Shown piece by piece: positions 19,501 through 30,489 of a DNA stretch of 39,539 nucleotides. The notes beneath the pieces were generated by a model. The model saw only the letters and a list, made by a program, of their open reading frames with translations. It searched no databases and was not told the origin of the DNA. Every line of letters starts with the position of its first letter. The stretch's first letter is position 1. The DNA is taken from the NCBI GenBank assembly GCA_034667685.1, contig JAXDQU010000002.1, positions 1-39,539 on the forward strand, read 5' to 3'. Source of the DNA: Thermoplasmata archaeon. Its GTDB lineage: Archaea; Thermoplasmatota; SW-10-69-26; JACQPN01; JAJPHT01. A program made the translations under genes and the position numbers.

Positions 19501-19670
19501 CCCCGTCGGCCGCGAGACCCGCGTTGGGCTTAAGGAGTACGCAAAGGGGCCGCGGGCGGGGACCATTCCGGTGGAGCGGGTGCTTCTTGCGCTGCGCCGC
19601 CGATCGCGCGGCGCGCAGAACGTCGCCCCCGCGCGTGGGTTGAAGTAGGGCCTCCGACCAAGCCTCCCGC

Positions 19671-20366
19671 ATGGCGGCCTGGCGCCGGCACGTCGAGCTT
19701 GCGGCGCTCCTGGTCCTGGCGATCGTCCTCGCGGGCTACGCTTGCGTGTGGGCCCTGCACGCCGCGGACACCGTGGCGGCCTGGACGCTCCCGCCCCGCG
19801 AGATCGACGGCGGCCAAAGGCCGCAGCAGCCCTTCGAGGCCGCGCAGTTCCGGCTCGAGGTCGTCTTCGGCGCCGTGGGGCTGCTGATGATCCCGTTGGG
19901 CGGCGCGCTCATCGGCGCGCTCTGGCCCTCCAGCCACCGGCGCGCCATGGTCCTCGTGGGCGCGCTGGACGTCTGGTTCGCGCTGCGCTTCTTCGACGAC
20001 CGCTGGGTGCAGCCGCACTGGACGCCGACGCTCTCGGTCGCCACCACGGCCGCGGAGGGCTTCGCGCTCGCCGTCTTCGCCGCCGCGATGGCGTGGCGCG
20101 GACGACGCACGGCGTGGCTCGCGGGCCTCTCGCTGGCCTGCGTCGGGCTGGCGCACGCCGAAGCCGTCTGGACGATGGCGGGCTGGCCCGGGCCGTGGCA
20201 CCCGACCACCAACCCGTCCGCCGCCGCGCTCCAGGCGTCGACCTACGGGCTGCACGCCGTCGCGTGGGCGCTGATGGTGGCCGCGCTCGCCCTCGCGGCG
20301 TGGCCGCTGATCCGCGAGCCTCAGGCCAAGCACTTGACGGAGCCGTCGTTCTGGAACTCCTCGTAG
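19671..20366 (+). CDS. Polytopic membrane protein
   Basis: About six hydrophobic helices. Confidence 0.7.
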   Translation: MAAWRRHVELAALLVLAIVLAGYACVWALHAADTVAAWTLPPREIDGGQRPQQPFEAAQFRLEVVFGAVGLLMIPLGGALIGALWPSSHRRAMVLVGALDVWFALRFFDDRWVQPHWTPTLSVATTAAEGFALAVFAAAMAWRGRRTAWLAGLSLACVGLAHAEAVWTMAGWPGPWHPTTNPSAAALQASTYGLHAVAWALMVAALALAAWPLIREPQAKHLTEPSFWNSS

Positions 20367-20686
20367 ACGGCGCACGCGGCGGTCTGCCGGGCCGAGACGC
20401 AGAGGCGGAACATGTGGTCCATGTCGCCCGCGTAGGGGGAGCAGTAGGTGAGGCCCAGCGTGCCGGTCTGCGTCGACGCGTAGCAGGTGCGCGTCTCGGT
20501 CACGCCGCTGACGTGCTTCTGGTAGACGAGGCAGTCGCCCTGCGTGCCGGCGCAGACGTAGTACCAGTTGTAGTCCGCGACGTACGCGTACTCCACGCAC
20601 CTGTCGCCGGCGCTGGCCTGGGCGGCGGGCACGAAGGTCGCGAAGGCGGCGGCTAAAGCGAGCACGAGGGGGACGACGCGCATCAT
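20321..20686 (-). CDS. Secreted Cys-rich protein (8 Cys, two 4-Cys units)
   Basis: Signal ending PAAQA; internal similarity CLVY...TCYA versus CAVY...KCLA. Confidence 0.75.
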   Translation of the reverse strand: MMRVVPLVLALAAAFATFVPAAQASAGDRCVEYAYVADYNWYYVCAGTQGDCLVYQKHVSGVTETRTCYASTQTGTLGLTYCSPYAGDMDHMFRLCVSARQTAACAVYEEFQNDGSVKCLA

Positions 20687-20797
20687 GGCGCCGGGCGCAC
20701 CACCGCGCCACGCACATCAGGGCAGCGCGGTTGCAACATCCCCGCTGCGCGCAAGCTTGATGGCCGCGCCCACGCCTCGCGCGGCCGGAGGCATTCC

Positions 20798-21004
20798 ATG
20801 AACGTCACCCGCGTCCTCGTCCTCGGCCTGCTCCTCGTGCCCGCCCTCGTCCTCGTCACGCCCAGCGCGTCCGCCGTCGCGTGCAACTCGCACTTCACCG
20901 GCGTGAGCGAGGTCGACGCGGTGGAGTACCGCGCCTGCGCCACCGGCCTCGCCGCCGTCAACAACGCCTGCGGCAAGGTCACGCACCGCGTCTGCTTCGA
21001 GTAG
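20798..21004 (+). CDS. Small secreted Cys-rich protein (68 aa, 4 Cys)
   Basis: GGAGG RBS; signal ending PSASA. Confidence 0.75.
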   Translation: MNVTRVLVLGLLLVPALVLVTPSASAVACNSHFTGVSEVDAVEYRACATGLAAVNNACGKVTHRVCFE

Positions 21005-21009
21005 GGCGA

Positions 21010-21183
21010 TCAGCCCGCCGCGCGGCGCGGCCGGCGCACCAGCTCGCCCTGGCAATTGGGGCAGACGAAGCCGAACCCGCTCGCGCACGCCTCGCACCAC
21101 GTGCACTCGTAGCTGCACACGTAGGCGATGCCGGCCATCGGTGTCGCGGCGCCGCACTTCTCGCAGACGGCGCGCATCTCCAT
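21010..21183 (-). CDS. DUF1272-family Cys-rich small protein (57 aa; not in the ORF track)
   Basis: Translated by hand: MEMRAVCEKCGAATPMAGIAYVCSYECTWCEACASGFGFVCPNCQGELVRRPRRAAG; GGTG RBS. Confidence 0.88.
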   Translation of the reverse strand: MEMRAVCEKCGAATPMAGIAYVCSYECTWCEACASGFGFVCPNCQGELVRRPRRAAG

Positions 21184-21190
21184 GCGGCAC

Positions 21191-22513
21191 CTACGGCGTC
21201 GCCGGGCCTCCGAAGAGCCCCGTGCCGCCGGTCTGCACCGCGATGGTCGCGTAGGCGTCCGACCACTGGTCGTCGTTGGTCGTGGTCGTCAGGCAGGAGC
21301 TGACGCAGCCGTCCGCGAACGCGACGACGACCGCGCCGCCCGCCGTGACGCTGGCGTCCATGAAGTCGAGCAGGTTGCGGTGGCAGCTCCCCGAGGAGGG
21401 GCTCACGTCGTAGATGCAGCCGCGCTGCACCGGGTCGCTCGTCGCCTTCACGGTGCTCCACGTCAGGCCGCCGTCGTACGAGAACGAGACGTACAGGTCC
21501 CAGACCCCGTGGTAGCCCGCCGCGAAGGGGCTGCCGGTGCCGGTGGTGCTGCCGAGGAACGCGACGGCGACGCTGCCGTCGTTGCCCGCGACGACCGCCT
21601 GGAAGGTGCTGGCCGTGATGGCCGGGCTGACCGTGGACGCGAGGTCCGTGAGGCGGTCCCACGTCGCGCCGTGCGTCGTGGAGCGCCCGACCCACGGGTG
21701 CTGGTCGACGCCGTCCGCCCACGCCTCGTAGAGCGTGTTGTCGGGCGTCGTCGCGACCGACGGGTCGAAGCCGCCGCCGGTGGGCGAGGTGCGCGAGCCG
21801 GGGATCGTGTAGCTCAGCCACGTCTTGCCGTTCTGGTTGGTGGAGAAGCCGCCCTGCCGGCTGCCGCAGTACGCCGAGGGGACGTAGGCCGTGCCGTCCG
21901 CGCTGACCTTGACGTGGCCGTGGAAGCTCTGGCAGAGCGGAATCGAGACCGGCGCGCCGAACGTCAGGCCGCCGTCCATCGACGTGGAGCACTCGTCGGT
22001 GCCATCCTGCGCGCAGTAGTAGACCGCGCGGTTGGAGAGCGCGCCCAGCGGCGCCGTCCCGTGCCAGGGACCCACGCCGATCGACTCGTGGTCGAACGCG
22101 GGCAGCGCGCAGGCGTTGCCCTCCTGGACCCACAGCGCGCCGTCGTCGTCCGTGTACTGGAGCAGGCTGCACGCGGGGCCGATGCCGCCCGCGTACGTCC
22201 GGCCCGTCGCGCGGTCCGTGACGAGGATCGGGTCGAGGTTGAACACCGACTGCGGCGCCGTCACGTCCTGCCAGGTGGGCGAGCCGCCCGCGGGGAAGTT
22301 GATCTTGTACGTGCTGGCGAACGCCTGGAAGAACGCGCTGTCGGTCGCCGGGTCGACGCCGATGCTGGGCTCGCCCGCGTTGTTCGAGTTGCCCAGGCTG
22401 GAGGGCGCCGCGTACGTCGAGAAGGCGGGCGTGGAGCCGCCGGCCTGCGTGGCCGCGGGGAGCGCCGCGAGCAGGAGCACGGCGAGGATGGGGACGATCA
22501 GGACGCGACGCAT
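21191..22513 (-). CDS. Secreted BNR/Asp-box protein (sialidase-like propeller)
   Basis: Signal peptide; Asp-boxes TDDDGALW, SMDGGLTF, STTHGATW and SYDGGLTW. Confidence 0.85.
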   Translation of the reverse strand: MRRVLIVPILAVLLLAALPAATQAGGSTPAFSTYAAPSSLGNSNNAGEPSIGVDPATDSAFFQAFASTYKINFPAGGSPTWQDVTAPQSVFNLDPILVTDRATGRTYAGGIGPACSLLQYTDDDGALWVQEGNACALPAFDHESIGVGPWHGTAPLGALSNRAVYYCAQDGTDECSTSMDGGLTFGAPVSIPLCQSFHGHVKVSADGTAYVPSAYCGSRQGGFSTNQNGKTWLSYTIPGSRTSPTGGGFDPSVATTPDNTLYEAWADGVDQHPWVGRSTTHGATWDRLTDLASTVSPAITASTFQAVVAGNDGSVAVAFLGSTTGTGSPFAAGYHGVWDLYVSFSYDGGLTWSTVKATSDPVQRGCIYDVSPSSGSCHRNLLDFMDASVTAGGAVVVAFADGCVSSCLTTTTNDDQWSDAYATIAVQTGGTGLFGGPATP

Positions 22514-22631
22514 GGGGAGCCTCGGGTCCGCCAGGACCGTTCCACGTCAAGAGGATGCCGCCACGCGCATAGGATCTCATGAGGCTCGCCGCCGGCACGC
22601 GCTTCAAACGTGGGCCCGCGGATCGGGCCGC

Positions 22632-23075
22632 ATGCCCATCTCGTCCGCGCCGCTCGCGAAGAAGCTCATGCTCAAGCCCGGCATGAAGGGGCTCCTGCTC
22701 CACGCGCCCGCGGGATTCAAGCTCGACGTCCCGAAGGGCGCGACGCTCGCCACGAGGGCCAGCGCGAAGACGTACGACTTCGGCCTCGCGTTCGCCAAGG
22801 ACGCGAAGGCGCTCGCCAAGGTCGCGCCCGCGCTCGTGGGCCGCATGCGCGAGGACGCGATGGCGTGGATCGCGTGGCCCAAGAAGACGGGCTCCATCGA
22901 GACCGACCTCTCGCGCGACGGCGACTGGGACGCGCTCTGGGACACCGGCTGGGAAGGCGTCTCCCTCGTGTCGCTCGACGACGACTGGAGCGCGTGGCGC
23001 ATCCGGCCCTCGCCCAAGGTGAAGCGGAACGAGCGGGCGCTGAAGGCGATCGCGGAGCGCGAGGCGAAGCGCTAG
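22632..23075 (+). CDS. DUF3052-like protein
   Basis: LAKKLMLKPG...WIAWPKK...DLSRD...VSLDDDWSAWR pattern. Confidence 0.75.
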   Translation: MPISSAPLAKKLMLKPGMKGLLLHAPAGFKLDVPKGATLATRASAKTYDFGLAFAKDAKALAKVAPALVGRMREDAMAWIAWPKKTGSIETDLSRDGDWDALWDTGWEGVSLVSLDDDWSAWRIRPSPKVKRNERALKAIAEREAKR

Positions 23076-26000
23076 AAGAAATCGCTCAGCTTCGCCTTCT
23101 TCACCCGGTCGTTCGTGAAGACGCTATCAATCGAATCCGACACGTGCTCGATGCGCTGCTGCACGTATTCGGAGACGTCGAACCGCACGCAGACTTCCTT
23201 GCTCACTTCGAGGTACTTCTTGACCGAGCCCTCGTGGACGGTCATGGTGAGGTTCGCGTTGCCGCACTTGCGGCATTTGCCCGTGAGCGGAATGCGGCGG
23301 TACTTGGTGTTGCACTTGGTGCAGCGCATGGCCTGCTTGCTGAACGCCTTCAGGTTGCCCATCATGTCGGGCAGGAAGTGCGAGCCGATGACGCGCGCCG
23401 CGACGTCGGGCGCGTCCACCGCGCGGATGCGCGCCGCCAATTCGAGCTGCGCGGTCATCTTGTCCATCATGCTGCCGATGGTCTTGTAGGCCGACATCTC
23501 GGGGCCCTCGGCGATGTCGGCGGTGTCGTGCGTGAAGCCGAAGCCTTCGTACTGCGAGGGCTTGCCCAGGCGCTTCGCCACCATGTCGATCATCTTCTCG
23601 ACGTCCTTGGGCCCGGGGTGCGCGAGCGTCGCCTCGAAGAACTCCAGCGGGTACTCGAACATCGTGTCGACGTTGTGCGCCTCCTTGTCGACCTCGCTGG
23701 GGTCGAGGCGCATCGTGAGCGTGAGCGGCGCGTCCATCAGGCCGCCGCGGTTGCTGGGCAGGTAGACGCGCGAGAAGTTTAGCAATCCATCAAGGAGAAG
23801 CATAACACAATCTTCGTCGCCGTCGCATCGGATCTGGTAGAGGCCGTTCCCGAGCAGCACGTTCCGCGTCAGGAGGTCGTCGGAGCCCGAGTCCACGTCC
23901 AGGCAGTACGTGGGCTCGTCGGAGGCCTCGCGCCGCGCGACGCGCAGCACGCGGTCGAACAGGTGGTGCGCGCCCTCCTCCGGATCGAAGCGGCGACCCT
24001 CGACCTGGATCACGCGCGTGGGCTTGACGTTCTCCAGGAGCGCCGCGAGCCGCGACGCCTTCTCGGGATGCGCGGGCTCCACGAGCGCGGCGAACGCCTT
24101 GATGTCGGCGCCGTAGAGGCTCAGCGCGTCCACGGGACCGAGCGTCTCCGGCGGGGGGCGGCCCAACGCCTCGTAGCGCGCCCGCAAGAAAGAGCCGGGC
24201 TCGCGCGGCTCGCCGGGGACGAAACGCGCGAAGATGCCCTGCGACTGGAGGAGCGTGGCGAAGTCCTCCAGGAGCGCGCGGTTGGCCGAGTAGAGCCGCA
24301 GGCGGGGGGGCTCGACGAAGGCGCTGCCGTCCCCGTCGAAGTAGCCCGCGACGAGGCTCGCGACAAGAGCGTCGGGAAGCCCGTAGCACCAAGCAGGCAC
24401 GCGTTTCTCGTGCGCGCCTTCGCCGGCCTTCCAGACCTTGGCGAGGAGCAGGTACGCGATGCGGCTGGGAAGCGTGACCTTGCTCTCCTCCTCGACGGCC
24501 GGCTCGCGCCCGAACGTCTCCTGGATGACGCGCACGAGCCTCGCCCGCAGCGTCGGCTCGGGCACGCGCCAGCTCACCTGGTGCGCGCTGCGCGTCGAGC
24601 GCGCGTAGCCTTCCGCGAGGTAGAAGCCCAGGAGCCAGCAGAGGTCGCGCGTCGCGGGCACGCGGACGGGCATCGACGTGTCGTCGCGCGCGAAGGCGAG
24701 GCGGGCCTCCGCGGGAATCTCGCGCCACTCCGCGAGGCCGGCACGGGCCAGCGCCGCGTAGTGGGTCAGCGGGAAGCTCCGCAGCCAGCGCGAGGGGATG
24801 CGCCGCTGCGCCGGGGTCGCGCCGCAAAGCTCCTCGACGCGCTCGCGGCCGACGCGCGCGAGGAGCGCGCGGAGGAACGGCTCCGCGTCGCGCAGGCGCA
24901 GGGTCGCCGCCTCCGGGAGATCGGCCAGGAGCGCGCCCAGCTCGAAGGTCGGCGACGAGGTCTCCCGCGGGAGGCTCATGGCGACGGGGACCTGGTCGCC
25001 GGGCGCGACCTCCGAGGCGGGGACGTGCAGGAGCCGTCCCTCGCGGCGCACGAGCACGCGATGGTCGAGTGTTACCGTGATGCGCCGGTGCGTCGAGGTC
25101 TCGACGTCGATCCAGGAGCGCGTCGTCCCTTGGATGAGCTTGGTCACGCGCAGCCGGCGCGGCGCCATCGTCGCAGGATCGAGCGAGAGAATCTCCAGGG
25201 GCTCGTCGGGCTCCGCGACGCGCGTCCCGTGCCCGTCGAGGGCGCGTCCGCGCTGCGCGATCGCGGGCGCCACGAGGGCGTCGAGACGCGTCTTCTCGAC
25301 GCGCCCCTCGCGCAGGACGACGACCTCGGTGTCGCCGCGGAAGCAGTTCCTGCGCTTCGACGCATGGAAAAACGGGTGCCCATAGTGCCCTTGCGCGCGC
25401 GTGTGGCCGATGATGCGGCAGAGCACGCCGCCCGAGGTGTGGGGCGCGAGCGCGACGAAGAGGTGGCCGTAGAGGTCCTCGATCTTCTTGCAGTTGTAGT
25501 AGGGCTTGTAGCCGTAGAGCTTGACCAGCAGCTCGTCGACGTACTGCGACGCGCGCAGCATGTAGTCGAGGCACGACGTCGAGACGATGATGTCCTGGAC
25601 CTTGATCTCCAGGATCTGCTGGTCGTGGACGAGCGGGTCGCCCTTGATGTCAAAGAGGTAGCCCAGCTCCTTGAGCCGCTCGACGCTGACGTGGGCCTCG
25701 CGCGGCTTGAAGTGCGTGAGGGTGATGTTGATCATGTCGAAGCGGACCGTCGCGTCCTTGAACGTGAACAGGTTGTGCTTCGCGCGCAGGAGGCCTTTCT
25801 CGATGGGCTCGGGGCTCTTGCTCTTGGAGATGAGGCCCACGACGGCCTTGACGGCGTCGGGCGAGTCCTCCAGCTTGAGGCGCTCCATCGCGGCCTCCAC
25901 GAGCGGCGCGATCTCGACGGGGCGCGGCTCGATGCGCTCGCCCTCCTTGCGGCGGACCATCTCGGTGTGCGCGCCGCAGGCGTCGCAGCGGTACGTGATC

Positions 26001-28117
26001 TGCCGCTTCTTGCATGCGGGGCAGGCGCGCTCGCCGACCTCGATCTCGATGGGGCCGGCCTTCATCGCGTCGCCCAGGAGGCGTTGCGGGCCGCCGGCGA
26101 TGCTGATCGGGAAGAGCAGGTGGACGGGCGGGTTCATCTTGCGCTCGGCGGCCTTCTCGGGGCGGCCCATGCGCGTGCCGATGCGGTAGATGCCGCGCGG
26201 ACGGATGGGGAAGCCGGCGAGGTGCGCGGCATAGTGCGTCGGGCCCTCGGGGCCCCCGTCGAGCGGCGCGCGGCGCACGATCCGCTCGTCCTGCACGTCG
26301 AGGCCCAGGCCGCGCAGCATGGCGTAGGCGTGGCGGCCGAACCTCACGTCGTCGAACGCGGAGTCGTTGAGCGCGCCAAGCTCGGTGATGATATCACGGA
26401 GCGCGCGCTTGCCCGCGGTGGGGTCGGCGCTCTCCAGGGCCTTCTTCGGCAGGAGCAGCATGTCCTCCGCCCAGCGGCCGTGCTCCTCGGCGAAGCGCGA
26501 CAGGGCCTGGATGTCCTCGATCGAGAGGTCGTGCCAGAAGAGGTTGTAGCGCGGCGCGAGCGGCGTCTGCGTGCGCTCGGCGAAGAGGACCGCGTCGCGG
26601 GCCGTCGGAAGCTCGGGCGGCGCGGCGCCGGTGGCCTTCCGCACGGTCTGCCGCCACCACTCCTCGCACCACGGGGATTGCGGGAGCGTCTTGTTGTTCT
26701 CGGCGAACTCGCCGTAGGGCACGAGGATCTCGCCGAGGTCGACGACCTGGCGCACCTGCGGGCGGAGCTGCTTCGCCATCTTGTACGACGTGACCTCGAC
26801 GAGGCTGCCGTTCGCCAGCAGCACGAGGGGCGGCTCGATGCTATCACACGGCGTCGTCGCGGTCGCCTTGCCGGGGCGCTCGATCTTCATCTGCGTGCCC
26901 GGCGCCAGGAAGTCGTCGCAGAGCGCCATGGCCGCTGGGTGGATCGCGGTGGTCGCGAGCCCGCCGGTGCGCGCGCGGCCGTAGCGCAGGCGCCAGCCCC
27001 CCTTGCGCGAGGGGTGCGCGAAGACGGGGCGTCCCGCGATGAGGTCGAGCATGAACTTCGCGCTGGGCTCGATGGCGCCGCGCGGCGCGTCGGCGTCCTT
27101 GGCCCACGGGTCGGTGAACTTCTTGCCGCCGTGCGCCTCGTCCTTCCCGCCGCCGGCCGCCTTCTTCTTGACGTAGTCGATGACCTGGTCGATGAACTCC
27201 CAGCCGTCGAGCTTGAGCGCCCTCACGTTCTTCTGGATCTTGGGCGCCTTCTGCGTCATGCCCTCGGCGAGGACGAGGCACGCGCCGCCGCGGATCTGGT
27301 TCGTCGTGAGGCGCGGCAGGTCGCGGTTGCCGCCGATCTCATCCTTCTCCGTGCCCTCGCCGTCGATCATGACGGGGCAGCTGCGCATGATGAGCTCGAT
27401 CTCTTCGTTGCTCGGCGTGTACTGGAGGTTCGCCGCGGCCCTGTACGCGGGGATCTCCTCCTTCATGCGCGAGATCTCCTTCTCGGTCGCGACGTACTTG
27501 CCGATGCCCAGCGCGCGGCGCACCACGTCCGCGATGAGCACGCTGAGCGCCTGGCCCGTGCCGCCCGCCGCGCGGATGGGGCCCGCGAAGACCAGCGCGC
27601 AGCAGTCGGTGCCGTCGTCGTTCTTCAGCAAGCGGACGCCGGCGATCCCTTCGAGCGGCGCGACGAGGATGCCCTCGGTGAGGATCGCGAGCCCCGTGCG
27701 CACGGCCTGGTCGAGCGCCTTCTCCTTGTCGTCGAACGTGCCGAACTTGCCGGCCGCGACCTCGTTGGCGACGATGAGCGAAAGCTCCTCGCGGTTCTTC
27801 TCCTTCGAGAGATCGCGGATGCGCTGCGCGACGCCCTTGGGGCCGACCAGCTCCTCGACGCGCGCCGCGAGGTCGATGGCCGGCGGGATCTCGACGCGCG
27901 TCTCCGGGTCGAACCCCTTCTCGCGGCACAGGCGAGCCAGCTCGTACTCGCGGCGCATGCGGCTCTCCAGCGCGGCGAAGTAGCGCTCCATCTCCTCGGA
28001 CGCGCCGCGGCCCGAGGGAATGGCGACCTCCGGCGGCTCGAAATCGAAGTCGTCCGCCTCATCGGGCTCCTCCTCCTGGAGGGGGACTGCGTCGTCGAAA
28101 TAGCCGACCGAGCCCAA
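23072..28117 (-). CDS. polC: DNA polymerase D large subunit DP2 (intein-containing)
   Basis: AILTEGILVAPLEGI, FAGPIRAAGGT, RMGRPEKA, APHTSGG, KRRN|CDGDED, RGGLMDAPL and a C-terminal Zn finger. Confidence 0.98.
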   Translation of the reverse strand: MGSVGYFDDAVPLQEEEPDEADDFDFEPPEVAIPSGRGASEEMERYFAALESRMRREYELARLCREKGFDPETRVEIPPAIDLAARVEELVGPKGVAQRIRDLSKEKNREELSLIVANEVAAGKFGTFDDKEKALDQAVRTGLAILTEGILVAPLEGIAGVRLLKNDDGTDCCALVFAGPIRAAGGTGQALSVLIADVVRRALGIGKYVATEKEISRMKEEIPAYRAAANLQYTPSNEEIELIMRSCPVMIDGEGTEKDEIGGNRDLPRLTTNQIRGGACLVLAEGMTQKAPKIQKNVRALKLDGWEFIDQVIDYVKKKAAGGGKDEAHGGKKFTDPWAKDADAPRGAIEPSAKFMLDLIAGRPVFAHPSRKGGWRLRYGRARTGGLATTAIHPAAMALCDDFLAPGTQMKIERPGKATATTPCDSIEPPLVLLANGSLVEVTSYKMAKQLRPQVRQVVDLGEILVPYGEFAENNKTLPQSPWCEEWWRQTVRKATGAAPPELPTARDAVLFAERTQTPLAPRYNLFWHDLSIEDIQALSRFAEEHGRWAEDMLLLPKKALESADPTAGKRALRDIITELGALNDSAFDDVRFGRHAYAMLRGLGLDVQDERIVRRAPLDGGPEGPTHYAAHLAGFPIRPRGIYRIGTRMGRPEKAAERKMNPPVHLLFPISIAGGPQRLLGDAMKAGPIEIEVGERACPACKKRQITYRCDACGAHTEMVRRKEGERIEPRPVEIAPLVEAAMERLKLEDSPDAVKAVVGLISKSKSPEPIEKGLLRAKHNLFTFKDATVRFDMINITLTHFKPREAHVSVERLKELGYLFDIKGDPLVHDQQILEIKVQDIIVSTSCLDYMLRASQYVDELLVKLYGYKPYYNCKKIEDLYGHLFVALAPHTSGGVLCRIIGHTRAQGHYGHPFFHASKRRNCFRGDTEVVVLREGRVEKTRLDALVAPAIAQRGRALDGHGTRVAEPDEPLEILSLDPATMAPRRLRVTKLIQGTTRSWIDVETSTHRRITVTLDHRVLVRREGRLLHVPASEVAPGDQVPVAMSLPRETSSPTFELGALLADLPEAATLRLRDAEPFLRALLARVGRERVEELCGATPAQRRIPSRWLRSFPLTHYAALARAGLAEWREIPAEARLAFARDDTSMPVRVPATRDLCWLLGFYLAEGYARSTRSAHQVSWRVPEPTLRARLVRVIQETFGREPAVEEESKVTLPSRIAYLLLAKVWKAGEGAHEKRVPAWCYGLPDALVASLVAGYFDGDGSAFVEPPRLRLYSANRALLEDFATLLQSQGIFARFVPGEPREPGSFLRARYEALGRPPPETLGPVDALSLYGADIKAFAALVEPAHPEKASRLAALLENVKPTRVIQVEGRRFDPEEGAHHLFDRVLRVARREASDEPTYCLDVDSGSDDLLTRNVLLGNGLYQIRCDGDEDCVMLLLDGLLNFSRVYLPSNRGGLMDAPLTLTMRLDPSEVDKEAHNVDTMFEYPLEFFEATLAHPGPKDVEKMIDMVAKRLGKPSQYEGFGFTHDTADIAEGPEMSAYKTIGSMMDKMTAQLELAARIRAVDAPDVAARVIGSHFLPDMMGNLKAFSKQAMRCTKCNTKYRRIPLTGKCRKCGNANLTMTVHEGSVKKYLEVSKEVCVRFDVSEYVQQRIEHVSDSIDSVFTNDRVKKAKLSDFF
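23828..25345 (-). mobile_element. Intein with LAGLIDADG homing endonuclease in DP2 (506 aa)
   Basis: Starts CFRGDT after KRRN; block B TLDH; LLGFYLAEG and LVAGYFDGDG; block F TYCLDV; ends NGLYQIR before CDGDED. Confidence 0.93.
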
Positions 28118-28312
28118 GGGGAACGCTCCGGGTCAGCCGGGTCCCGACCAAAGGGGTTTCGGGGACGGCCCCCCGGAAAACCCGCGCGCCTGTTCTTCAG
28201 GTGGAGCCGTTTCCCCTGGCGTGGACGACCTCCATCGGAAGCCAAGGGGTAGAGTCGCGCCGAAAGTGTTCGCGCCCCAAATCGCATGCCCCTGCGCGCC
28301 CGGTGGGGCTCG

Positions 28313-28561
28313 ATGCGTCCCATCATCCTCGTTTCAGCGCTGCTGCTCCTCGCCTTCGCCCCCGCCGCGCAGGCGCACCCCATCGGGGGCGAGGGCTGCG
28401 TCTCCGTGGCCACGGACCCGCCGGGCGCCGGCACCAACCTCGACTCGTGCCTCCATCCCTCGGGCGACAGCAACGTCCGCGGCGGCGAAGGGTGCGTCGC
28501 CGTCGAAACCGATCCCCCGGGCGTCGGGACCCACCTCGACTCCTGCATCGGCTCGATCTAG
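28313..28561 (+). CDS. Small secreted protein with two GGEGCV..TDPPG...LDSC repeats
   Basis: Signal ending PAAQA; duplication visible in protein and DNA. Confidence 0.75.
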   Translation: MRPIILVSALLLLAFAPAAQAHPIGGEGCVSVATDPPGAGTNLDSCLHPSGDSNVRGGEGCVAVETDPPGVGTHLDSCIGSI

Positions 28562-30246
28562 ACCACATCGCCCGGGTTCGCGATCTTCTCGGGCTGGCGG
28601 AAGGCGCCGCCGAACGCGGTCTTCCCGACGACGTCCACGCCCGCGGGCTTGCCGCGGTGGAAGTCCACCATGTAGGGCTTGCCCGTGTCCAACTCGATGA
28701 CGGGGACCTTCGCCGGCTCGGGCATGAAGCCGTGCATCTTCTGGTACGCCGTCTGGCTCTGCCAGCACGAGGCGTTGATGAGCGTGATGCCGCGGTAGCT
28801 GTCGAGCCCCGCCGCGTGCACGTGCCCCGTGACGAAGACGTCGGGCACGCTGTCGATGGTGAGGTAGTCCTTGTGCTCGGGCGCGATGGGCGTGCGCAGG
28901 CCGTACACCGGGACCATGTGCCGGCGCACCACCATCTCCTTCATCGCGTCGATGGGGCGCTCGTAGCTCATGCCGGCGACGCGCGTGATCCAGTCGTCCA
29001 TGCTGCGGCCGTGATAGCTCAGGATCTCGACGCCTTCGATGGAGAGCTTGCACGGGTTGCCGATGTGGCGCACGCTCTCGGGGAAGAGCCGCGTGTATTT
29101 CTCGGGGAGCGCGGGCTGCGGCTCGGCGGGCCGCACGAGGTCGTGGTTGCCCGGCATCACCATGATCTTGATATCATCGCGGATGCGCGCGAGCTGCTCG
29201 CCGGCGTACCGGTACTGCTCGTACGCGTCGACGATCGCCAGCTCCTCCTCCTGGCCCGGGAAGATGCCGATGCCGTCCACGACGTCGCCGTTCACGACGA
29301 GGTACTTCACCTTCCGCGCCAGGGCTTTCATGCGCGAGTCGCCCCAGTCGAGGTTGATCCAGCGCAGGAAGCGCTCCCAGTCCTCGTGCAGGAACGTCTT
29401 CGCGCCGAAGTGGACGTCGCTGAGGATCGCGACGGCGGCCGCGTGCGCGCTGCGCCGCGCCTGCCCCGCCATCGGGACGTCGGGGCGCACGATGTGCTCC
29501 AGGATCAGCAGGTCGCCGCGGCCGGGCGGCTTCGCCACGACGCCGATGACCTCGTCCTCGATGACGGTGTCCGTCTCCACGAGCAGGTTCGCATCGCTCG
29601 CGGGCGCCAGGAGCGCGACGCTGCCGGTCTCGTCCTCCAGCTCCAGCAGGCGGTGGCCGTTCTTCGTCGTGCGGATCTCCGTGACGATGCCGATGAGCTG
29701 GATCTTCGCCAGGCCGCCGGCCCGCGCCCGCGAGATGGGCACCGCGCCGCTGACCTCGCGGCGCTGCTTGAGCATCTTGCGGATCTTCCCGAGCCGGTCG
29801 TTGAAGTAGCGCGTGAAGTCGGAGATCGCGCCCTCGCACGTCGAGTTGCCCGTCACGTCGGCGAGCACGTCGATCTGGTGCGCGTACGGCTCCATCAGGC
29901 GCGGGCGCGGGGGCAGCGGGCCGCCCTTGGCCTTGAGCTTCGCCTCGACCTTGGGCTCTTCGAGCACGAGGCCCCGCGTGTCGGGCGTGAACGGCGCGAC
30001 GACGGGGGGAGGCGAGGGGAGGCTGGGGGCGGCGACGGGAGGCTGTGGGAGGACGAGGGGGGCGGCCGGGAGGACCTGCGCGGGCTGCCGCGGGGCGGGC
30101 TCCAGGTCGGCGAGCGTGACGAGGAAGGGAAGCTCGGCGCGCGCCAGCAGCCTCTCGCCCAGCGCGGGCTCCTTCTCCAGGCGGGCCGCGGCGTCGGGCG
30201 CCAGCAGGCTGCCGCGCTTCAGGAGCTCCGCGAGAAGGGACTGCAC
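28558..30246 (-). CDS. polB: DNA polymerase D small subunit DP1 (3'-5' exonuclease)
   Basis: OB-fold region plus SDVH, GDVVDG, PGNHD, YHG and GHVH phosphoesterase motifs. Confidence 0.97.
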   Translation of the reverse strand: MQSLLAELLKRGSLLAPDAAARLEKEPALGERLLARAELPFLVTLADLEPAPRQPAQVLPAAPLVLPQPPVAAPSLPSPPPVVAPFTPDTRGLVLEEPKVEAKLKAKGGPLPPRPRLMEPYAHQIDVLADVTGNSTCEGAISDFTRYFNDRLGKIRKMLKQRREVSGAVPISRARAGGLAKIQLIGIVTEIRTTKNGHRLLELEDETGSVALLAPASDANLLVETDTVIEDEVIGVVAKPPGRGDLLILEHIVRPDVPMAGQARRSAHAAAVAILSDVHFGAKTFLHEDWERFLRWINLDWGDSRMKALARKVKYLVVNGDVVDGIGIFPGQEEELAIVDAYEQYRYAGEQLARIRDDIKIMVMPGNHDLVRPAEPQPALPEKYTRLFPESVRHIGNPCKLSIEGVEILSYHGRSMDDWITRVAGMSYERPIDAMKEMVVRRHMVPVYGLRTPIAPEHKDYLTIDSVPDVFVTGHVHAAGLDSYRGITLINASCWQSQTAYQKMHGFMPEPAKVPVIELDTGKPYMVDFHRGKPAGVDVVGKTAFGGAFRQPEKIANPGDVV

Positions 30247-30303
30247 TGGCGAAGGAGTAGACGGCGCGGAAGATGAAGGCGCGCCGCCGGTTTCGCGTGG
30301 AGA

Positions 30304-30489
30304 TCAGAAGCGCCCGCGCACGCTGAGGCGGAACTCCTCGAGCGCCTCGGTCGAACGGAACTGCTTGGGCTCGCCCACGTTCCCGCAATGGAGGCACTCG
30401 ACGGAGGCCTCCTCGAAGGCGAACTCGCCACCCTCATGCTCCACGTGCTGGAGCAGCGTGCTTCCGCAGCGCGAGCAGGCGCCAGGCAT
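30304..30489 (-). CDS. Small zinc-ribbon protein (61 aa)
   Basis: CSRCG ... CLHCG; ATG 30489. Confidence 0.7.
   Translation of the reverse strand: MPGACSRCGSTLLQHVEHEGGEFAFEEASVECLHCGNVGEPKQFRSTEALEEFRLSVRGRF

Follow-up and report, generated by a model that had tools for sequence, protein, structure and literature searches.

All inteins are described as keeping a single residue in common, the terminal Asn, Gln or Asp, which performs the bond-breaking step (PMC7664689), and the accounts of splicing in two reviews give only these three terminal residues, with step 3 proceeding by cyclisation of the side chain (PMC4031507; PMC7664689). The closest described systems to the element reported here are the PolII mini-inteins of Pab and Pho (PDB 2LCJ, 5BKH, 7OEC), for which cyclisation of Gln, but nothing of the kind for Arg, is documented (PMC4031507). 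Atypical inteins ending in Gln or Asp (Chilo iridescent virus RNR, Methanoculleus marisnigri PolII) also splice without a terminal Asn and show that the step-3 residue is changeable in evolution, although the side-chain amide or carboxylate of Gln and Asp can cyclise as Asn does. Here we describe an intein that ends in Arg, located in DP2, the large subunit of PolD, of a Thermoplasmata archaeon (GCA_034667685.1, contig JAXDQU010000002.1). The DNA analysed is a stretch of 39,539 nucleotides (nt), called the window below, and all coordinates refer to it.

The window intein lies in the same host protein and at the same insertion point as the Pab and Pho PolII inteins (KRRN/CDGDED, the slash marking the junction), and this site and the detectable homology place it in the DP2/PolII allelic family. 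It shares with them Cys1, the block B Thr and His, Cys+1, and a non-Asn terminal residue with an epsilon nitrogen. The two characterised inteins end in Gln, as a first-pass annotation of this DNA had stated; their end is His-Gln (...IVTHQ/CDGD), and they have the block F His and Ser at block F position 4 (F:4). In contrast, the clade of the window intein ends mostly in Ile-Arg or Val-Arg, has Lys or Arg in place of the block F His, and has Cys at F:4. The window copy, unlike the Pab and Pho mini-inteins, also bears a LAGLIDADG endonuclease.

Arg was the last residue in all 34 distinct sequences of this clade and in all 10 further near-identical cluster members that include the junction, at identities to the window intein of ~26 to 65%. 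Sixty related genomes were sampled and yielded three full-length orthologues at 45-54% identity, each with the end NVLLGNGLYQIR/CDGDED; a collection of 5.8 billion proteins gave seven more (51-64% identity), all Arg-ending, one of them with Val and not Ile before the Arg. Scanning of GTDB genomes found an intein in a metagenome-assembled genome (MAG) of Hadesarchaea with 33% identity and the end ...KNVLWSNQLFQVR, and a profile search of 1.84 billion cluster representatives added P0014-P0020, P0026, P0032, P0043, P0091 and P0099. Among these, P0091 is an Arg-ending mini-intein of 193 amino acids (aa) without endonuclease, on a contig of 1527 bases. According to the source names, the members belong to Thermoplasmatota, Hadesarchaea and Candidatus Pacearchaeota. 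When the phylum was sampled, a match at E<=1e-40 was found in 15 of 401 genomes and all 15 ended in Arg; 11 of these genomes fell in one other family, from which 53 genomes were sampled. The corresponding sample for the phylum of the Hadesarchaea genome showed the Arg type in 2 of 66 genomes and also one Gln type. Other searches were less productive: a scan of metagenome contigs was dominated by the generic LAGLIDADG pattern, its 40 loci being 21-34% identical and including no close relative, one of these loci (L053) had no DP2 junction when checked for it, and the ESM Atlas search returned generic intein and endonuclease clusters only.

The terminal codon was checked against Logan assembled contigs of sequencing runs. 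A contig of run X1 (23500-24898) and a contig of run X2 (23802-25600), which comes from a different study, both span the codon with no difference from the window. Over the 17 loci for which DNA was available, the codon was CGA in nine, AGA in three, CGC in two, and CGG, CGT and AGG in one each, and codon-specific recoding of CGA is ruled out by this use of all six Arg codons. Comparison of the four closest loci showed synonymous differences at 9 of the final 12 codons and no protein change. Such synonymous variation and the use of all six Arg codons indicate that selection acts on the amino acid. The first-pass annotation had proposed that Arg conserved across genomes with different codons would mark a real class, and had considered that close homologs might all end in Gln or Asn; the former is the pattern found, the latter is not. 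We regard the Arg-ending clade as almost certainly real. We found no description of an Arg-ending intein in the literature, a search for which supplementary tables (e.g. PMC4760082) and most subscription journals were outside the scope. The presence of Arg in dozens of related archaeal inteins suggests that protein splicing can be completed in an undescribed way.

The features of the locus are as follows.

23072..28117, minus strand: precursor gene of DP2 (PolD large subunit), 1681 codons and a stop, no internal stop.
25346..28117, minus strand: N-extein, with the C-terminal end ...HASKRRN.
23828..25345, minus strand: intein, a HINT splicing domain with a nested, predicted LAGLIDADG homing endonuclease; 506 aa, DP2 residues 925-1430.
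25343..25345, minus strand: Cys1 (TGC), the N-terminal nucleophile, kept in 19/19 Arg-type and 46/46 other aligned DP2 inteins.
25061..25072, minus strand: block B TLDH (Thr92, His95), both residues unchanged in 19/19 Arg-type rows.
24602..24634, minus strand: first LAGLIDADG motif, LLGFYLAEGYA, from the PI-PkoII alignment.
24323..24355, minus strand: second LAGLIDADG motif, LVAGYFDGDGS, Pfam LAGLIDADG_3, protein residues 1252-1299.
23894..23911, minus strand: block F TYCLDV; its position 4, usually Asp, is Cys481 here and Cys in all 33 Arg-type tails compared.
23828..23866, minus strand: last 13 residues of the intein, RNVLLGNGLYQIR, aligned without gaps to HNVIINENIVTHQ of Pab and Pho PolII, with Arg494 in place of the block F His.
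23828..23830, minus strand: codon CGA of the terminal Arg506, present in contigs of two runs.
23825..23827, minus strand: Cys+1 (TGC), which opens the C-extein motif CDGDED.
23072..23827, minus strand: C-extein, beginning CDGDEDCVMLLLDG, stop codon included.
28558..30246, minus strand: gene of DP1 (PolD small subunit), which adjoins DP2 upstream on the same strand; DNA_pol_E_B 49.4 bits, Metallophos 41.6 bits.

The junctions read HASKRRN/CFRGDTEV and GNGLYQIR/CDGDEDCV, and the last intein codons are CAG ATC CGA (Gln-Ile-Arg), followed by TGC. The elements listed by the first-pass annotation, that is, a DP2 intein between KRRN and CDGDED with Cys1, TLDH, two LAGLIDADG motifs, TYCLDV and a Gln-Ile-Arg end, were all found. 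The N-terminal splicing half of the intein resembles the Pab polC intein (2LCJ; 2.6e-13 with a four-sequence profile). The nested part scored 37.8 bits with LAGLIDADG_3 against a cut-off of 22.5 and matched PI-PkoII at 1.2e-18, or 4.9e-30 with a profile, and from the two motifs and the profile match it is identified as a putative LAGLIDADG homing endonuclease. The exteins gave 376.6 bits with PolC_DP2_N, 399.2 with PolC_DP2_central and 446.2 with PolC_DP2_cat in Pfam, the catalytic domain being matched in two stretches.

The boundaries of the intein are fixed to within the repeated Cys codon by an empty site. A contig of run X9, 319 bases from a mine metagenome with flanks of ~90% identity, joins position 23824 directly to 25343; the omitted segment measures exactly 1518 bases, with a 3-base ambiguity due to the repeated Cys codon, so that the contig represents an exact intein-less allele. 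Other boundaries were considered and rejected. An intein that ended at the Asn of GN/G or RN/V would have a non-nucleophilic +1 residue (Gly or Val) and would leave extra residues in the product, and this Asn is not conserved, being Glu in P0026, P0032, P0043 and P0099. A frame shifted by one codon would place Phe first and Cys last. The Gln at position -3, which the first-pass annotation had offered as the cyclising residue, would leave Ile-Arg on Cys+1, and it is not conserved either: the position is occupied by Q, T, S, L, N or M across the Arg clade.

The insertion splits the acidic motif NCDGD of the polymerase, the Asn of which is reported as needed for efficient synthesis (PMC7708050); the description of the site as lying in a catalytic motif, given earlier, therefore holds. 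DP2 was found in a single copy in the source genome (99% complete), and a second, uninterrupted DP2, envisaged as one way in which splicing could be dispensed with, is not present. The exteins of DP2 and the DP1 gene are intact, and the DP2 catalytic domain is uninterrupted in all four genomes of the same genus and in one of the same family. From the single DP2 with its adjacent DP1 and the intein-less genomes of the genus, the intein appears to be mobile and very probably splices. Its patchy occurrence among close relatives, the exact empty site and the retention of both endonuclease motifs point to a homing-type element. In addition, C1, T92, H95 and Cys+1 are retained down to ~26% identity, and the natural mini-intein P0091 is a further argument for splicing. 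The view of the first-pass annotation that splicing probably still happens is supported, also by the Arg in 34/34 clade members with six Arg codons, and we consider it probable that the intein splices.

We determined a tree of 65 DP2 inteins at this insertion site, from which the last residue had been removed before building. All 19 Arg rows fell inside one clade of 26 with a support of 99 in the Shimodaira-Hasegawa-like approximate likelihood ratio test (SH-aLRT); the remainder of the clade consisted of five Gln-ending and two Asn-ending inteins. The distribution of Arg on the tree needs three changes, two of which are forced by well-supported branches, and the constraint of the Arg rows to a single group was not rejected by the approximately unbiased (AU) test (p-AU 0.174). 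Because the Arg clade adjoins the Gln-ending PolII inteins with good support, it is likely derived from a Gln-ending PolII ancestor, presumably through a CAR-to-CGR transition. One of the Asn-ending members, P0027, is sister to the Arg-ending P0026 with a support of 98, and its residue at position -13 is still Lys; it looks like a reversal from Arg to Asn and would be useful as a natural control. The tree also held an Asp-ending DP2 intein of the same site, P0110 (...NLAVYD/CDGDQD), on a long branch.

The residues conserved with the terminal Arg were compared in 85 DP2 inteins at the site, comprising 33 Arg, 24 Asn, 27 Gln and 1 Asp types. Cys at F:4 was found in 33/33 Arg types, 5/24 Asn types and 14/27 Gln types, and this occurrence in Gln- and Asn-ending DP2 inteins indicates that the Cys predates the Arg. 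Position -13, which corresponds to the block F His of Pab, was Lys in 27 and Arg in 6 of the 33 Arg types, and His in 18/24 Asn types and 12/27 Gln types. The penultimate residue of the Arg types was Ile in 24, Val in 4, Thr in 3, and Pro and Met in one each, and was His in none; Asn at -7 was replaced by Glu in some members. Invariant in the 19 aligned Arg rows were C1, W78, R87, T92, H95, P120, D464, Y480, C481, L497 and R506, and Cys+1 was present in every Arg-type sequence. In the nine closest relatives, identity over the last 13 residues was 0.94 against 0.54 overall. The ratio of tail to overall identity was 1.74-1.88 for the Arg clade, compared with 1.21, 1.37 and 0.76 for Asn and Gln clades.

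With respect to the known classes, the window intein has the Cys1, block B Thr and His (B:7, B:10) and Cys+1 of class 1 and an in-frame site with intein-less alleles, but in place of the C-terminal Asn (or Gln or Asp) it has Arg, as do 34/34 members of the clade. The penultimate His (G:6) and the block F His (F:13), which are usual though not obligatory, are both missing in Arg types. Class 3 inteins (WCT; mycobacteriophage Bethlehem DnaB, Deinococcus radiodurans Snf2) have in common with the Arg type the Cys at F:4 and the absence of a penultimate His. They are described as having no N-terminal nucleophile, Trp at B:12, Thr at G:5 and a terminal Asn (PMC4031507), whereas the window intein has Cys1, Val two places past the block B His, Gln at -3 and a terminal Arg. 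The Arg type is accordingly not a class 3 intein; of the class 3 hallmarks only the Cys at F:4 is shared. Type B bacterial intein-like (BIL) domains are HINT domains whose C-terminal block is unlike intein block G, as in the Arg type. The review text describes BILs as lacking a +1 nucleophile and as mainly cleaving, not splicing (PMC4031507); in contrast, Cys+1 of the Arg type is invariant and its host is a single-copy polymerase gene, and it is not a BIL domain.

Curated profile models scarcely detect the window intein. Pfam Intein_splicing gave 22.7 bits for the window intein against a cut-off of 35.8, and NCBIfam intein_Nterm gave 24.2 against 24.5. NCBIfam intein_Cterm gave no match to the window intein even at E<=1, whereas a canonical DP2 intein passed it (20.1 against 15.6). 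This C-terminal model (TIGR01443) was run on P0002, L024 and L007; the Asn-ending DP2 intein was matched, and the Arg-ending and Gln-ending ones were not. Automatic annotation probably under-calls Arg- and Gln-ending inteins.

In the mechanism that we propose, steps 1 and 2 would take place as in class 1 inteins, which is expected from the retention of Cys1, of Thr and His in block B, and of Cys+1, and step 3, the release of the C-extein, has to take place without Asn, Gln or Asp. The N-epsilon of Arg506, the internal guanidino nitrogen, corresponds in side-chain position to N-epsilon-2 of the ancestral Gln and would attack the backbone carbonyl of its own residue. Ring closure would give a six-membered delta-lactam, comparable to the six-membered glutarimide formed from Gln, and would cut the Arg-Cys+1 bond. 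The site would have been re-tuned along with this change, through the exchange of the block F His for Lys or Arg and the disappearance of the penultimate His. In the structure of Pho PolII, a distance of 3.4 A separates the block F His from the terminal Gln, which this His is thought to activate (PMC8229266), and the position of this His is the one changed to Lys or Arg in the Arg clade. Delta-lactam formation by the internal guanidine nitrogen of Arg, when the carboxyl of the residue is activated, is described as a well-known side reaction in peptide synthesis (PMC3597280; PMC7352207). The overall reading that we prefer is a genuine, mobile, very probably splicing-competent intein of an old Arg-ending clade, derived from Gln-ending PolII inteins and using an Arg-lactam step 3; as a whole it is held tentatively, at somewhat less than an even chance. 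Arg cyclisation as the step-3 chemistry, taken by itself, is possible but carries more doubt than confidence. That these inteins make up a fourth mechanistic class, in which the branched intermediate is resolved by conversion of the C-terminal Arg to a delta-lactam, reached by a single transition from Gln-ending PolII inteins with block F re-tuned afterwards, falls on the unlikely side.

Several points weigh against the preferred reading. At neutral pH the guanidinium group carries a proton and is only weakly nucleophilic, and the activated esters in the peptide-synthesis reaction are far more reactive than a backbone amide. A thiol-based route agrees no less well with the invariant block F Cys. 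The clade counts are counts of related rows and not of independent events, Arg may have arisen only once, and all the Arg-type sequences stem from metagenomes or MAGs. As for splicing, the indispensability of DP2 is an assumption, there being two PolB-family matches in the genome, and no RNA run was listed as containing the stretch.

The alternative that survives best, although we rate it unlikely, is a thiol-based step 3 in which Arg506 merely positions or strains the bond. It may be formulated in two versions. In one, an N-to-S acyl shift of Cys+1 at the Arg-Cys+1 bond would free its alpha-amine to attack the N-extein thioester on Cys1, and the thioester left at the C-terminus of the intein would be handed to Cys481 or hydrolysed; in the other, Cys481 would attack the scissile bond directly in the manner of a cysteine protease. 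The first-pass annotation had named the block F Cys among its candidates, and it is a live one, since it is found at block F position 4 in all the Arg types (33/33, and 19/19 aligned rows), and this position is described as facing Cys+1 and as holding the nucleophile in class 3 inteins (PMC4031507). Nevertheless, the same Cys occurs in 14/27 Gln-ending and 5/24 Asn-ending inteins, so it is older than the Arg and not specific to it. Moreover, a thiol route leaves unexplained both the strictness of the terminal Arg (34/34) and the joint change of the block F His to Lys or Arg.

Cutting of the Arg-Cys+1 bond, either by intein-activated water or by a protease of the host with specificity for a preceding Arg, followed by ligation from the branched intermediate, we regard as improbable. 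It would agree with the lack of a conserved cyclising residue near the C-terminus, where the -3 Gln varies and the -7 Asn is sometimes Glu, and a strictly conserved Arg before the cut would suit an Arg-specific protease. However, occurrence in three archaeal phyla (by source names) and patchiness within the genus form the pattern of a self-sufficient homing element, the spread of which would be hindered by dependence on the host; for the same reason the trans-assisted cleavage that had been suggested earlier is judged unlikely for this element. The tail-to-overall identity ratio of 1.74-1.88, compared with 0.76-1.37 in Asn and Gln clades, also points to an internal active site.

Less probable still is that the insert no longer splices and is a tolerated inserted domain, or that DP2 is dispensable. 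The canonical step-3 residues (terminal Asn, Gln or Asp, penultimate His, block F His) are all gone, which together with the failure of intein_Cterm and the two PolB-family matches would speak for it. Against this stand the splitting of the NCDGD motif with its Asn reported as required for efficient synthesis (PMC7708050), the invariance of Cys1, Thr92, His95 and Cys+1 at an overall identity of 26-65%, the intact DP2 exteins and DP1, and the presence and absence in close relatives with an exact empty site and both LAGLIDADG motifs kept. The remaining explanation, listed by the first-pass annotation, is an error of sequencing or assembly, or a CAA-to-CGA change confined to one genome, and it is refuted: CGA is one transition from CAA and the codon of Arg506 is the only CGA among the 148 Arg codons of the DP2 gene, but contigs of two runs from different studies have identical letters, Arg is found in 34/34 relatives with all six codons, and the neighbouring codons vary synonymously.

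The maintenance of Arg by a clade in the catalytic motif of a replicative polymerase implies either that Arg performs the step-3 chemistry or that a second route of C-extein release exists. Protein chemistry would gain a reaction from either answer, and the set of intein tools would grow, for example by cleavage or ligation tags with different control by pH or redox. If true, the cyclisation of Arg would be the first natural example of a peptide bond cleaved in an 'arginine lyase' manner. Detection of inteins is also affected, as the NCBIfam model for C-terminal splicing overlooks the Arg-ending ones. The clade is open to experiment owing to the natural 193-aa mini-intein P0091, its handiest member for biochemistry or nuclear magnetic resonance (NMR), and to Gln-ending relatives with solved structures.

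Around DP1 and DP2, seven of the eight long open reading frames (ORFs) tested had no Pfam family at E<=0.001, the eighth being DP1. Five of the seven lie on the minus strand (19530-20717, 20717-21190, 20979-22703, 27625-28548, 29174-30397) and two on the plus strand (21128-22582, 28201-30276). Several of them share DNA with real genes in a different frame or on the opposite strand, and at 70% GC these ORFs may not be genuine.

Inspection of codon composition showed that the minimum of third-position GC in the whole DP2 gene is a stretch of 17 codons (23780..23830, minus strand), which starts at the last codon of the intein. The value there was 7/17, compared with 0.95 for the gene and 0.94 for the intein. 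The tract of A/T-ending codons beside the junction is partly common to intein-less relatives, and it may have been left behind by co-conversion in the course of homing, or be constrained by the target site of the endonuclease.

The same genome has a second LAGLIDADG intein, L098 (G000:C17:37383-40562), inserted in an SNF2-type helicase after ...GLGK. Its ends are canonical, with Cys first and ...THN last, followed by Thr, and the source organism carries one ordinary and one Arg-ending intein together.

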